DNA of 64,000 bases, taken from positions 3,851 to 67,850 of the forward strand of contig DATJWK010000020.1 of assembly GCA_035501395.1 (NCBI GenBank), read 5' to 3'. The position numbers were made by a program, and so were the translations under genes. Position 1 is the stretch's first letter; each line of letters begins with the position of its first letter. This document shows, piece after piece, positions 49,957 to 53,214 of this stretch. Source of the stretch: Puia sp. (GTDB lineage: Bacteria; Bacteroidota; Bacteroidia; Chitinophagales; Chitinophagaceae). The notes under the pieces are model-generated. The model worked only from the letters and a program-made list of their open reading frames with translations, did no database searches and was not told the origin of the DNA.

Positions 49957-50613
49957 TCAATGAACGCTACCGTCCTGCACTTTAATCTTATGTTTGCCGG
50001 CTTTTTTCTCGAATTCGAGCACTTCCTTTGGCTTGGCGACCGCCTGGGTGGAATCGGGCATCGCCCGCTGGCCGGCTTGCGATTTTTCCAGTTTCCCCAG
50101 ATCCCAGGTTTCTGTCCGGATAACGGTTCCGGTAAACGCATCATAGAATTTCCAGGTTCCGTCCTTTATGGCGGCGCCCGTATTCTTAATGATCACCGTC
50201 CTGTATTTGTCAAGGTGCTCGACGTCTTCTACGACAAGCGTATCGTAAAGCTTGTTCGGGTTAAGCGCGACCCAGCTTTCTTCGCGCTGCAAGGTGCCGT
50301 TGATACCAAAGTATTGGCAAATCCCGGCTTTGTTGCCCCATTTGTATTGTTCGATCCCGATCAGATCGCCCTGCAGGCTGAACAACTTCCAGACACCTTC
50401 TTTTTTGTCGTCCTTGTAAATGCCTTGTTCTTCAAATCCCGGTTCACCGCGGATCTCGTCGTAATGGTTCACCCATTTCCCCTGCTTCCGGTTTTGCTGG
50501 TCGACGCCGTTCAGCGTATCGCCATGCGGACCGATCGTATAGTCTTTCAACTGGGACCGGGCGCTAAGGCCGGCGAGTTGAGCGATAATGAGGAAGAAGA
50601 GGATCTGACGCAT
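49957..50613 (-). CDS. Hypothetical exported protein with MORN-variant/YwqK-like repeats
   Basis: KQGKWV, KKEGVWKLF, KDGTWKFY repeats; signal peptide. Confidence 0.7.
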   Translation of the reverse strand: MRQILFFLIIAQLAGLSARSQLKDYTIGPHGDTLNGVDQQNRKQGKWVNHYDEIRGEPGFEEQGIYKDDKKEGVWKLFSLQGDLIGIEQYKWGNKAGICQYFGINGTLQREESWVALNPNKLYDTLVVEDVEHLDKYRTVIIKNTGAAIKDGTWKFYDAFTGTVIRTETWDLGKLEKSQAGQRAMPDSTQAVAKPKEVLEFEKKAGKHKIKVQDGSVH

Positions 50614-50681
50614 ACCGTAAATCTAACGAAAATCGTTCCAATTTATTGAGTAGCTTATATTTGCGTACTCAATTGATTGAC

Positions 50682-51317
50682 ATGAAAATATACATTGGGC
50701 TCATGATGGTTGTTTTTTTTGGGTTTAGGGCCGGGGCGCAAATGACGATTCGCCAGATGAAAGACGAATTGGAAAAGTCGCCGAACCCGATCCTGTATGC
50801 AAAGGAAGTGCTCAAAAAACGCTTTAAGATCGACACGATCACGATTAGCCAAACCGCGCATTTTGGCGGCCTGGCAGATAGTCTGGCGTATCGCGGAAAG
50901 GAGAGAAAGGTTTATGGGCCTTATGGTCCGAAGGATGGCCGGTTCCTCGTCCAGGTGCTGAGTAAAGCGCCCAATACCTTCTATCACATCAGTCAGATCT
51001 TTATCGACACGTCGGTCTTTAGCTACCGGATCGCCGACTCCATCGGGAATGTCATCCTGAAAAAGTTGAAGGATGGGACGGCGACCTTTGAGGATATGGC
51101 GAGGACCTATGCGATCGGCCGCGATGCCGCGTCCGGCGGAGATGTGGGATGGGTGGCGCGGGGCGCAATGTTCCCGGTAGTGGAGCATGAGATCGCCACG
51201 CACAAAAAAGGGGAGGCTTTCAAGCTGTGGACGAGGGCAGGGCTGAATATTATGCGAAAGGATGACGACGCCCGGCAGGACGCGGGGTTTGCGCTGATGA
51301 TGCAGGTTTTTTTGTAG
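50682..51317 (+). CDS. Parvulin-like peptidyl-prolyl isomerase domain protein
   Basis: TFEDMARTYA..SGGDVGWV...M pattern; signal peptide. Confidence 0.7.
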   Translation: MKIYIGLMMVVFFGFRAGAQMTIRQMKDELEKSPNPILYAKEVLKKRFKIDTITISQTAHFGGLADSLAYRGKERKVYGPYGPKDGRFLVQVLSKAPNTFYHISQIFIDTSVFSYRIADSIGNVILKKLKDGTATFEDMARTYAIGRDAASGGDVGWVARGAMFPVVEHEIATHKKGEAFKLWTRAGLNIMRKDDDARQDAGFALMMQVFL

Positions 51318-51330
51318 GATGACCTGCGTT

Positions 51331-52044
51331 CTATTTCATCAGCAGTTTGACCGCCAGTCCGGTGAAAATGGCGATGCCTATACTCAGCAAGGTCCCGATC
51401 ACCAGGTATTCCGTTTTTATTTCCTGCCGGTCTTTTTCGCTAAACCGGATGATACCCTTTGCGGTGACGAGCAGACCGATCGCGGAATACTGGCCCTGCA
51501 GGACGAGTACCAGGACGATAATCCGTTCGGCGATCCCGATCCATTTACCCGCATTGACAAGGCTGTTCTCCGGATCATCGATCCTTCTGCTCCATTGTCT
51601 GGTTAGTTCGCCGATAAGAATACCCGCGGGAGCCGTTACAAAAACAAAACCTGCCGTTATCAGCCAGGCATTGCTGTCGGTATCCAGCCGCCGGCGCAAA
51701 TCATCCCAAATTCCGGGGTACCGGAATGTCAGGAACCAGCAGACGCCGATAACGCCGAGGTGTAGCAGCTGATCGATCAGGAAATAACGGATCGTGCGGG
51801 GCCGGTAGGATTTCCAGACGTCGATAAAAAAGTGCGTGACGAGAATAGTGAGGGCAACCGCCCAATAACGCCAGCCGATGAAGATGTAAGCCAGCCCGGC
51901 GGTCAGAAGCGCATGCACGTAGAGTTTTGGGGAAGCAAAATGCTTCCTGCAACGCTCGTCGACCCATGCTGCAGGCTGCAGGATAAAGTCGGTCAGCAGA
52001 TGGGACAGGATCAGCCTGATCAGCCATATGGTTCCGGGTATCAT
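51331..52044 (-). CDS. DUF3307-family multi-pass membrane protein
   Basis: HLLTDFILQP, LYVH, THFFID, IDQLLH; C-terminal GKWIGIAER, AKGIIRF, EYLVIGTLLS; ATGA overlap with the upstream gene. Confidence 0.85.
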   Translation of the reverse strand: MIPGTIWLIRLILSHLLTDFILQPAAWVDERCRKHFASPKLYVHALLTAGLAYIFIGWRYWAVALTILVTHFFIDVWKSYRPRTIRYFLIDQLLHLGVIGVCWFLTFRYPGIWDDLRRRLDTDSNAWLITAGFVFVTAPAGILIGELTRQWSRRIDDPENSLVNAGKWIGIAERIIVLVLVLQGQYSAIGLLVTAKGIIRFSEKDRQEIKTEYLVIGTLLSIGIAIFTGLAVKLLMK

Positions 52045-52682
52045 GATAGTAGTTCGGTCATTTTCGTGTATTGCTGAAGTATCCTTTCGATCGCCGGCCA
52101 CCTTCCGGCATTTGCCAGCTCGGATATGGTGCTCTTGGCTTTCTCGAGCGACAGCGCCAGTTGCTGCTGCGTCACTCCCTTTAACAGGTTTGCGATGACA
52201 TCGGCCTGCTTCGCGGTCATTTCCTGGAAAATGCTGTCGAGATAGTCCGCCATGGTCTGAAACCCGATATCCGCCATTTGGTTGCCGCTGACGATGGAAA
52301 GACGGCGTTCCGTTGCCTGCAGCTTGTCCAGTTCCCTGCCGGATAGCACAAAGGCCTCGCCCTTTGCAGATCCTGGTGCATGAACAGGCGCGGTTACCTC
52401 GCCGATTCCGATGGCGATCCGGATATCCCCCCGGGCCGCTCCGTCTTCCCTGGTGGTTATTTCGATTGCCACGGCCCTGCAGGCCAGCGCCAGCTGCAGC
52501 GCTTTTGAAGGCTCTTTTACATACGCCTGAAAACTGTCACCGCGGTAGAATTCGTGCGGATGCTCCTGCAGAAGCCCGGCCAGCACTTCCAGCAGCCTGG
52601 CTTCCTGCGGCGGAGACAGGCTGGTTGAATTTACAATATCGCCGGTCAGGACGGCGCCGGGGATTCCCTTCGGTCTGCTCAT
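52041..52682 (-). CDS. SatD-family protein (class III cyclase-like core plus C-terminal HTH)
   Basis: LTGDIVNST, YRGDSFQ, IRIAIGIG, GEAFVLSGR; HTH TQQQLALSLEKAKSTISE. Confidence 0.8.
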   Translation of the reverse strand: MSRPKGIPGAVLTGDIVNSTSLSPPQEARLLEVLAGLLQEHPHEFYRGDSFQAYVKEPSKALQLALACRAVAIEITTREDGAARGDIRIAIGIGEVTAPVHAPGSAKGEAFVLSGRELDKLQATERRLSIVSGNQMADIGFQTMADYLDSIFQEMTAKQADVIANLLKGVTQQQLALSLEKAKSTISELANAGRWPAIERILQQYTKMTELLS

Positions 52683-52688
52683 AGCTCT

Positions 52689-52794
52689 GTTCGGTTGTTT
52701 CACCGAATTTGGTCAAAGTTCGGTATTTTTACCGAATATTGCAAGAGTTCGCCAATTTTACCGAATTTTTATACAGTTCGCCATTTTTACCGAA
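52689..52794. repeat. Four 19-bp palindromic direct repeats, 29-bp period, 10-bp variable spacers
   Basis: GTTCGGTTGTTTCACCGAA (52689), GTTCGGTATTTTTACCGAA (52718), GTTCGCCAATTTTACCGAA (52747), GTTCGCCATTTTTACCGAA (52776). Confidence 0.95.
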
Positions 52795-53214
52795 CTAGTC
52801 GCCGATAAAGAACCGAAGCGCCAGTTCGTATCCTTTCAGGCCCAGGCCGGCGATCGTACCCTTTGCCTTCGCCGATACATACGAGAGGCGGCGGAATTCT
52901 TCCCGCGCGTTGACATTGCTGATGTGAACTTCGATAACCGGCGCTTTGATGGCCGCAATGGCATCGCCGATCGCAACGGAAGTATGGGTATAGCCACCGG
53001 GGTTCAGGAGAATACCGTCCGAGGAAAATCCGACGCGCTGCAGCTCATCGATCAGTTCGCCTTCGACGTTACTCTGGAAATAACTAAAGGTGATCGAGGC
53101 GTATTTCCTGACAAGCTCCGCATAGTATTGCTCGAAGGTCTGGCTGCCATATACTTCAGGTTCCCGCGTACCCAGCAGGTTCAGATTCGGACCGTTGATG
53201 ATGGCAATACGCAT
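52795..53214 (-). CDS. aroQ: Type II 3-dehydroquinate dehydratase
   Basis: INGPNLNLLGTREPEVYG, QSNVEG, NPGGYTHTS, EVHISN. Confidence 0.97.
   Translation of the reverse strand: MRIAIINGPNLNLLGTREPEVYGSQTFEQYYAELVRKYASITFSYFQSNVEGELIDELQRVGFSSDGILLNPGGYTHTSVAIGDAIAAIKAPVIEVHISNVNAREEFRRLSYVSAKAKGTIAGLGLKGYELALRFFIGD

Follow-up and report, generated by a model that had tools for sequence, protein, structure and literature searches.

The SatD family reportedly takes its name from the Streptococcus mutans secretion and acid tolerance (sat) operon, and Kremer et al. (2001) are said to have assigned SatD and SatE no function. Mycobacterial cyclase-STAND-LuxR proteins of the Rv0386 type, which exceed 1000 amino acids (aa), carry a class III cyclase domain and a LuxR-type helix-turn-helix (HTH) around an ATPase/STAND core, and in hipBA the partner that does not bind DNA bridges neighbouring operator-bound dimers. 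In Panoptes (mCpol OptS and S-2TM-beta OptE), a constitutive signal holds the effector off (PMC12657218). Here we analyse a 1.46-kb cassette at positions 51,331 to 52,794 of a 64,000-nucleotide stretch of Puia sp. DNA (hereafter the window), in which an array of palindromic repeats precedes a SatD-family gene (satD) and the gene for a membrane protein (the partner). With moderate confidence we read the cassette as self-contained and self-repressed, with SatD as the regulator, the membrane protein as the output, and the palm domain of SatD as the signal input.

The closest described pair is S. mutans SatD/SatE (PF16264; PF11750), which belongs to the same superfamily; the window partner matches PF11750, and the two genes likewise travel together, however the window SatD lies below the reach of the Pfam model and has GDSFQ in place of GDEFQ. 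The palm fold is common to SatD, the class III cyclases (Ma1120 of Mycobacterium avium, PDB 4wp9; 3mr7), and GGDEF domains, with the metal-binding Asp and a D-I-x-x-S-T motif aligning with class III. In contrast to these enzymes, the SatD palm is only ~130 aa long, the catalytic Asn appears by manual alignment to have been lost, a GG(D/E)EF signature is absent, and the HTH is fused directly to it. The combination of a class III cyclase-type domain and a LuxR-type HTH on one polypeptide recalls the Rv0386-type proteins, whereas SatD has 213 aa, lacks the ATPase, and always occurs with a membrane partner and a candidate operator array. As in Panoptes and Pycsar, the gene of a minimal palm/cyclase protein stands next to that of a transmembrane protein, however the SatD partner has no nucleotide-binding soluble domain, SatD has an HTH and an operator array, and there is neither a PADLOC match nor a defence context here. 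mCpol is not among the top 50 structural matches of the SatD model (Foldseek). The promoter of E. coli K-12 hipBA (L116, 365-477) carries four 18-bp operators, TATCC-N8-GGATA, and offers a tested parallel to the window array, in that four 18-bp dyads stand before an operon of two genes, the first of which encodes an HTH autorepressor (in SatD a probable one). The hipBA operators are spaced 28, 39, and 28 bp apart as opposed to a uniform 29 bp in the window, HipB is a small Xre-type protein and HipA a soluble kinase, and the HTH similarity is weak (E 0.08), with no homology implied. By analogy with hipBA, the palm domain could serve as the bridge between operator-bound dimers.

The cassette and the aroQ gene ahead of it all lie on the minus strand, with the following features:

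52777..52794, minus strand: dyad 1, promoter-distal; gene strand TTCGGTAAAAATGGCGAA; abuts the aroQ stop codon TAG (52795-52797)
52748..52765, minus strand: dyad 2, with an imperfect arm; gene strand TTCGGTAAAATTGGCGAA
52719..52736, minus strand: dyad 3, a perfect 6+6+6 palindrome; TTCGGTAAAAATACCGAA
52690..52707, minus strand: dyad 4, proximal, a perfect palindrome; TTCGGTGAAACAACCGAA; ends 7 nt ahead of the ATG at 52682
52041-52682, minus strand: satD-family gene, 213 aa plus stop; open reading frame (ORF) of a branch out of reach of the PF16264 model
52284..52682, minus strand: palm or class III cyclase-like domain of SatD, residues 1-133 (alignment, PDB-cyclase profile, Foldseek)
52044..52220, minus strand: predicted four-helix HTH of SatD, LuxR/GerE/sigma-70 region 4 type, residues 155-213 (profile, model)
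52041-52044, minus strand: ATGA overlap; TGA is the satD stop and ATG the partner start
51331-52044, minus strand: membrane-protein gene, 237 aa plus stop; ORF with a PF11750 match
51730..52023, minus strand: DUF3307 domain of the partner, residues 8-105 (PF11750, 84.6 bits, E 7.5e-24; 23-bit cut-off)
51334..51597, minus strand: C-terminal three-helix membrane module of the partner, residues ~150-237, ~90 aa (hmmsearch, alignment)
52795-53214, minus strand: aroQ (PF01220, E 1.1e-54)
50646-51317, convergent: parvulin gene (PF00639, E 4.6e-9)

A first-pass annotation, made from the sequence alone, had described a compact cassette of four palindromic repeats, a 213-aa gene, and an ATGA-overlapped DUF3307 gene between aroQ and a convergent parvulin gene; the coordinates and the PF11750 match bear this out, as do the PF01220 and PF00639 matches of the flanking genes.

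The array consists of four 18-bp dyads, TTCG-N10-CGAA, with start-to-start distances of exactly 29, 29, and 29 bp. Two of the four are perfect (TTCGGT-N6-ACCGAA) and two have one degenerate arm, TTCGCC (4/6 matching), with dyad 1 extended to AGTTCG by the AG of the aroQ stop codon. As dyad 1 abuts this stop codon and dyad 4 ends 7 nt before the satD start, the 112-nt gap between aroQ and satD consists wholly of array. Strand-matches to TTCG-N10-CGAA number 10 in the window against 1.8 expected, a count reached by none of 100 shuffles, and a genome-wide scan shows this to be the only tandem array of the motif in the 5.39-Mb genome, in which the cassette is likewise single copy. The few perfect dyads found elsewhere in the genome are isolated and lie inside long ORFs, and are for that reason taken as chance; a regulon of further genomic dyads was rejected on the same grounds.

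The geometry of the array is conserved among relatives of the cassette. We compared 80 Chitinophagaceae loci (Puia, Ferruginibacter, Hanamia, Sediminibacterium, Chitinophaga japonensis, and others), 79 of which could be scored for dyads, and found 2-6 dyads upstream of the pair in 78 of these 79 despite differing genomic context, with a dyad spacing of exactly 29 bp in 174 of 186 instances. The near-invariant positions of the dyads are TTCG, CGAA, and the flanks AG and C/T-T only, and the centre is A/T-rich. A Vibrio lentus plasmid carries three TTAGCC-N6-GGCTAA dyads ahead of the pair at 29-bp spacing, and a Salinivibrio plasmid carries two, also 29 bp apart, with a half-site that is different again. 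At PF16264-type loci of other Bacteroidota, the top autocorrelation lag upstream is also 29 bp, and the half-sites include GTTTCA/TGAAAC, TGCAAC/GTTGCA, and TACAAT/ATTGTA. The first-pass annotation had named a lack of arrays ahead of homologous pairs as an observation that would refute it; such arrays are present in Chitinophagaceae and beyond, and on this point the proposal is not refuted. The half-site varies with the lineage of the cassette. Because the geometry is fixed, the half-sites are lineage-specific, and the array is always attached to the cassette, the likely binder of the dyads is the cassette's own HTH protein.

On a Segatella copri plasmid (L084, 3630-3730) the upstream repeat is different, with copies of TGCCATATTTTTCGATTAA ~35 bp apart and ~230 nt from the satD start, and the 29-bp layout is thus not kept in every lineage.

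In most relatives the array overlaps a candidate promoter element. A Bacteroidota -7-like box, TAnnTTT[GA], occurs at 62 of the 79 loci (9.5 expected from shuffles), 18-60 nt ahead of the ATG. At 52 loci it stands in fixed phase with the array, placed either centrally in the last full dyad or one 29-bp period beyond, in a half-dyad that has the left arm only. A protein bound at the proximal unit would therefore mask the -7 element, an arrangement that favours repression, and the tight autorepression proposed in the first-pass annotation fits this overlap. In the window and its six nearest relatives the array fills the whole distance between the upstream stop codon and a point 7-11 nt ahead of the ATG. 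Transcription may reach the cassette by read-through from aroQ in this subclade, with the bound array acting as a roadblock. A sigma-70 promoter scan, of a kind not built for Bacteroidota promoters, returned no site.

Assignment of the 213-aa protein to the SatD superfamily depends on its homologues. The protein has no match to the Pfam SatD model PF16264 (29-bit cut-off) even at E ≤ 10, a PF16264 search of its own genome returned nothing, and Pfam and NCBIfam gave only HTH_3 at 19.9 bits, under the 23-bit cut-off. Homologues number more than 1200 in one search and more than 1400 in another, and among a set of 40 phmmer-linked representatives (28-56% identity), 16 remote homologues match PF16264, with a best E of 1e-10. 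The SatD label given at first pass therefore holds only transitively, since these relatives match the family and the window protein does not. PF16264 loci also share architecture, partner, and 29-bp array with the window cassette, and by these sequence relationships the protein is a diverged Chitinophagaceae branch of the SatD superfamily.

The N-terminal half of the protein carries the motifs TGDIVNST (D15), FYRGDSFQ (D49), DIRISIGIG (D86), and LSGR (S114, G115, R116). A profile of the 40 homologues matches the class III cyclases 3mr7 and Ma1120 at ~E 1e-3, with D15 and D49 falling on the two metal-binding Asp of both enzymes and the D-I-x-x-S-T stretch common to SatD and Ma1120. The AlphaFold (AF2) model, with a predicted local distance difference test (pLDDT) of 96 and a predicted template modelling score (pTM) of 0.92, consists of a beta-alpha-beta-beta-alpha-beta-alpha-beta domain of ~130 residues that is joined by a long linker helix to an HTH of four helices, and is judged to have the palm fold of class III cyclases (beta-alpha-alpha-beta-beta-alpha-beta). 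Foldseek matches the model to PAC, Rv1900c, Rv1264, CyaC, and sGC (probability 1.0, E 2e-5 to 1e-3), and to GGDEF domains, also at probability 1.0. Over the 40 homologues D49 and S114 are invariant, and D15, S19, R47, G48, F51, Q52, D86, G94, G115, and D119 are at least 90% conserved, a level that D15, D49, and D86 hold down to 28% identity. In a manual register of GEAFVLSGR against GDTVNTASR, a half that HMMER left unaligned, Arg116 comes to lie at the class III transition-state Arg, and R116 is at least 90% conserved in alignment A1. The GG(D/E)EF signature is absent, the corresponding residues being Y-R-G-D-S-F-Q in the window and L-G-D-E-F-Q in PF16264-type relatives. Overall, the palm domain has the look of a selected site for binding nucleotide and metal, and the cyclase-like character ascribed to this half at first pass agrees with both the predicted fold and the conserved Asp pair. 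The literature searched contains nothing on SatD as a cyclase, and DUF3307 appears there only in unrelated work.

The HTH noticed at first pass is predicted in the C-terminal half, from family matches of the homologues (Sigma70_r4_2 in 16 of the 40 and GerE in 13) and from their profile, which matches RcsB, NarL, GerE, SdiA, and RhlR at E 0.002-0.05. The recognition helix is predicted at about residues 183-194 (KSTISELANAGR). HTHs of the GerE and sigma-70 region 4 types bind 18-20-bp dyads as dimers.

Although the partner was annotated by its DUF3307 domain, this is not the part that accompanies SatD throughout. In 35 orthologues eight residues of the domain are invariant (H15, D19, H35, H44, H71, D75, D91, and H95), all within or next to membrane helices, and the C-terminal half holds long invariant stretches of its own (NAGKWIGxxER, AKGIIRF, and KTEYLVIGT). 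At the PF16264-type loci of other Bacteroidota (L085-L114), the partner overlaps satD or lies directly 3' of it and mostly has 104-115 aa, with the others reaching 245-270 aa and lacking the DUF3307 motifs. An hmmsearch model of the C-terminal part of the window partner (from residue 122 onwards) recovers every one of these partners, whereas a model of the N-terminal half recovers only those of Vibrio, Segatella, and, weakly, Salinivibrio. The common core over all partner types comprises G170, E173, R174, A195, K196, R200, E212, Y213, and G217, and no Pfam family covers this module. As it is the only part that all partner types share, the small C-terminal module is, as judged from these alignments, the constant SatD companion, and DUF3307, the namesake of the annotated partner, is one of several variable N-terminal heads rather than the conserved core. 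This is new here, and departs from the first-pass pairing of SatD with DUF3307 itself.

The model of the partner (pLDDT 83) is all-helical, with about eight membrane helices. DUF3307 is its sole Pfam domain, no nucleotide-binding domain is recognisable, and comparison with the PDB by sequence and by fold gave no relative (best Foldseek E 0.38). The structural searches proposed at first pass thus succeeded for SatD, whose palm was placed with class III and GGDEF, and left the partner without a fold relative in the PDB. Two membrane helices lie between the charged loops beside the C-terminal module (148-162 and 202-207), so that both loops are on the same face, by the positive-inside rule probably the cytoplasmic one. 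At 5 of ~78 loci the partner is shortened or internally deleted with satD and the array intact (L011:4612-4842, L028:4621-5089, L051:4609-5007, L060:4615-5010, and L074:4612-4979), which could be decay, metagenome assembly error, or selection against the partner.

The pair of SatD and its partner is widespread. Full-length copies are present in about a third of 201 Chitinophagaceae genomes, nearly always one per genome, although one genome of the window's own genus is without the cassette, and the membrane gene directly follows satD at 78 of the 80 loci whilst the surrounding genes differ. When only the Pfam model is used, 53 of 301 Bacteroidota genomes have PF16264 proper, whereas all 14 control genomes lack it. 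Copies were found on 7 of 72,556 plasmids, proteobacterial plasmids among them; two of these copies are flanked by transposases. The pair is conserved on four plasmids of three phyla. Neither 50,697 phage records nor viral contigs contain a copy. In a census of 144 immediate neighbours from 76 loci, the commonest are YaaH-type channels (13), type IX secretion system (T9SS) plug proteins (9), esterases, and methyltransferases. PADLOC matches among these neighbours amount to one GajA-like protein, one RtcR-type CARF-AAA-HTH regulator, seven generic methyltransferases (mad2), a trypsin-like protease, and PDC-M37B, so that the enrichment in defence islands anticipated at first pass was not seen. 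For the cassette itself PADLOC gave no partner match and a best SatD E of 0.026, which is not significant (PADLOC v2 predates Panoptes). For Chitinophagaceae a false lead is thereby removed, as neither context nor catalogues point to phage defence.

A copy on the Sphingomonas insulae plasmid NZ_CP048421.1 (L083, 69022-77624) has an extra small ORF upstream and adjoins a Pycsar effector, an adenylate/guanylate cyclase, a TIR-domain gene, and an ImmA/IrrE-HTH pair; unlike the Chitinophagaceae copies, it stands in a defence-island setting.

In the autoregulatory mechanism that we favour, a SatD dimer would bind each of the four 18-20-bp dyads and, once bound, would limit transcription of satD and of the partner gene coupled to it, with transcription starting from a promoter inside the array or, in the subclade of the window, arriving by read-through from aroQ. 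The palm domain, which retains both metal-binding Asp and a motif resembling a phosphate loop, would receive the signal by binding a nucleotide or turning it over, and might also bridge neighbouring DNA-bound dimers. The membrane protein would be the regulated output, coupled to SatD through the C-terminal module, the flanking charged loops of which are expected to be cytoplasmic, and its His/Asp-rich DUF3307 domain may be a lineage-specific functional head. If this is true, a 213-aa transcription factor with a cyclase fold and an intact metal site would form a new link between nucleotide chemistry and gene control. A direct test now has its targets in the operator (18-20-bp dyads, 29-bp period), in D15, D49, and R116 of SatD, and in residues ~150-237 of the partner.

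Several observations weigh against this mechanism. In a manual alignment, Val or Leu takes the place of the Asn in the catalytic Asn/Arg pair of class III, and the GGDEF-like Glu is replaced by Ser (GDSF) in the Chitinophagaceae branch, also by manual alignment, so that catalysis may be lost. The window and its six nearest relatives show no -7-like box. On a tree of 81 proteins, the states of recognition-helix residues 187 and 189 and of operator position 5 are clustered and not cleanly linked, and locus L073 has H189 yet all-G sites at that position; residue-base co-variation within Chitinophagaceae was for this reason dropped as evidence. Finally, a regulator whose sole target is its own operon says nothing on physiological role, and Pycsar/Panoptes-like, toxin-antitoxin-like, and stress or homeostasis readings are all compatible with autoregulation.

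Among these, a toxin-antitoxin-like addiction or abortive module, with the membrane module as toxin and SatD as antitoxin and autorepressor at a HipB-like multi-operator promoter, is doubtful, though a serious candidate. The layout is that of a type II system, with the DNA-binding gene first, the partner second, a 4-nt overlap, and palindromic operators, and the four 18-bp dyads recall those of E. coli K-12 hipBA. The patchy, single-copy presence in about one third of Chitinophagaceae genomes, the absence from a genome of the same genus, the variable context with two alternative Puia sites, and the partner of just 104-115 aa in other Bacteroidota would also suit such a module. The partner truncations beside an intact satD and array give an indirect hint in the same direction, although in metagenome-assembled genomes they may be assembly artefacts or decay. 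However, SatD is large and has an enzyme-like site, unlike typical labile antitoxins, the partner is under strong purifying conservation with a His/Asp centre that resembles an enzyme or metal site, and most copies are chromosomal and lie amid housekeeping genes. A further reading is a housekeeping homeostasis module, in which DUF3307 would be a membrane enzyme or a metal or ion handler and SatD a ligand-sensing repressor through which it is induced when needed, for instance in envelope, acid, or metal stress. We consider this possible, if tentative: eight invariant His/Asp lie in or by membrane helices, the neighbours are housekeeping or miscellaneous genes, and the family is said to be named after a secretion and acid tolerance operon. 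SatE has also been reported among stress-associated vesicle proteins (PMC13492114). Against homeostasis, most SatD partners of other Bacteroidota have no DUF3307 domain, which hence cannot be the core function of the pair, and the patchy distribution speaks against a core housekeeping role. The 2001 sat paper, moreover, reportedly gave SatD and SatE no function.

A Pycsar- or Panoptes-like system with a nucleotide as second messenger, in which SatD is an active cyclase, its product gates or keeps shut a membrane killing effector, and the HTH only sets expression, is in our view unlikely. Both metal-binding Asp, the Ma1120-like D-I-x-x-S-T loop, and an Arg at the probable transition-state position are kept, the cyclase-like and membrane proteins are obligately paired and translationally coupled, and the Sphingomonas plasmid copy adjoins a Pycsar system and a TIR gene; Panoptes provides a precedent for a minimal palm cyclase that restrains a transmembrane effector by a constitutive inhibitory signal (PMC12657218). 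However, there are almost no defence genes next to the 76 loci, neither protein has a significant PADLOC match, phage and viral contigs carry no copies, and the branch of the window has kept neither the class III Asn nor the GGDEF Glu (manual alignment). The nucleotide-gated effector envisaged at first pass also finds no counterpart in the partner, which has no soluble nucleotide-binding domain (beta-barrel, CARF, SAVED, or cyclic nucleotide monophosphate-binding) and no solved fold relative. A variant that we regard as very unlikely makes the array a scaffold. The half-site cores TTCG and CGAA alternate in orientation about every 14-15 bp, centre to centre, and the palms of neighbouring SatD dimers would pair across the 11-bp spacers into class III head-to-tail active sites, whose DNA-templated nucleotide signal would restrain the partner via the C-terminal module. 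Were this so, loss of the signal or of SatD would unleash the membrane protein, and a Panoptes-like inverse-signalling or addiction system would have been made from a transcription factor. Also very unlikely is that the repeats are not operators at all and instead form RNA hairpins in a leader or read-through transcript, a REP-like (repetitive extragenic palindromic) or mobile repeat, or sites of an unrelated host factor. The array in the window subclade is probably transcribed by read-through from aroQ, as there is no room for a terminator, and taken as RNA it folds better than shuffles (z -3.6); any dyad array does so, since palindromes fold by construction, and the RNA-structure reading was rejected as uninformative. 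Furthermore, no more than 4 bp of each arm are invariant and the arms are mismatched in two of the four window copies, the dyads lie upstream of the -7-like box in most relatives and would not be transcribed there, the genome holds no second copy, so that this is not a dispersed repeat, and the half-sites vary with cassette lineage where those of a shared host factor would be fixed.

The surroundings of the autoregulatory cassette differ between Puia genomes. The window, L001, and L002 have the order carA-aroQ-[array satD partner]-parvulin(reverse)-ORF X (49957-53214 in the window), whereas other Puia (L003, L005, L007-L013, L015, and L055) have carA-aroQ-parvulin(reverse)-ORF X-[array satD partner]. 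The two alternative sites flank the block of parvulin and ORF X, and in both the array begins at the TAG stop codon of the upstream gene; from this gene order, either the cassette or the parvulin-X block is seen to have moved as a unit within Puia. The join between the two genes appears to be conserved as well: at many orthologous loci the end coordinate of satD equals the start coordinate of the partner, as in the ATGA overlap of the window, by which the two genes are probably translationally coupled.

The most frequent neighbour, with 13 proteins, is the GPR1/FUN34/YaaH acetate-succinate channel. Judged by ORF size, it is probably the divergent upstream gene of ~197 aa at loci L035, L037, L038, L040, L041, L044, L048, L050, L054, L059, L065, L071, and L080, and this is probably clade-specific synteny. 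On the downstream side of the window cassette, the convergent stop codons of the parvulin gene (51317) and the partner gene (51331) are only 13 nt apart, and a small terminator-like hairpin (51313-51328, plus strand) lies exactly where the parvulin gene ends.

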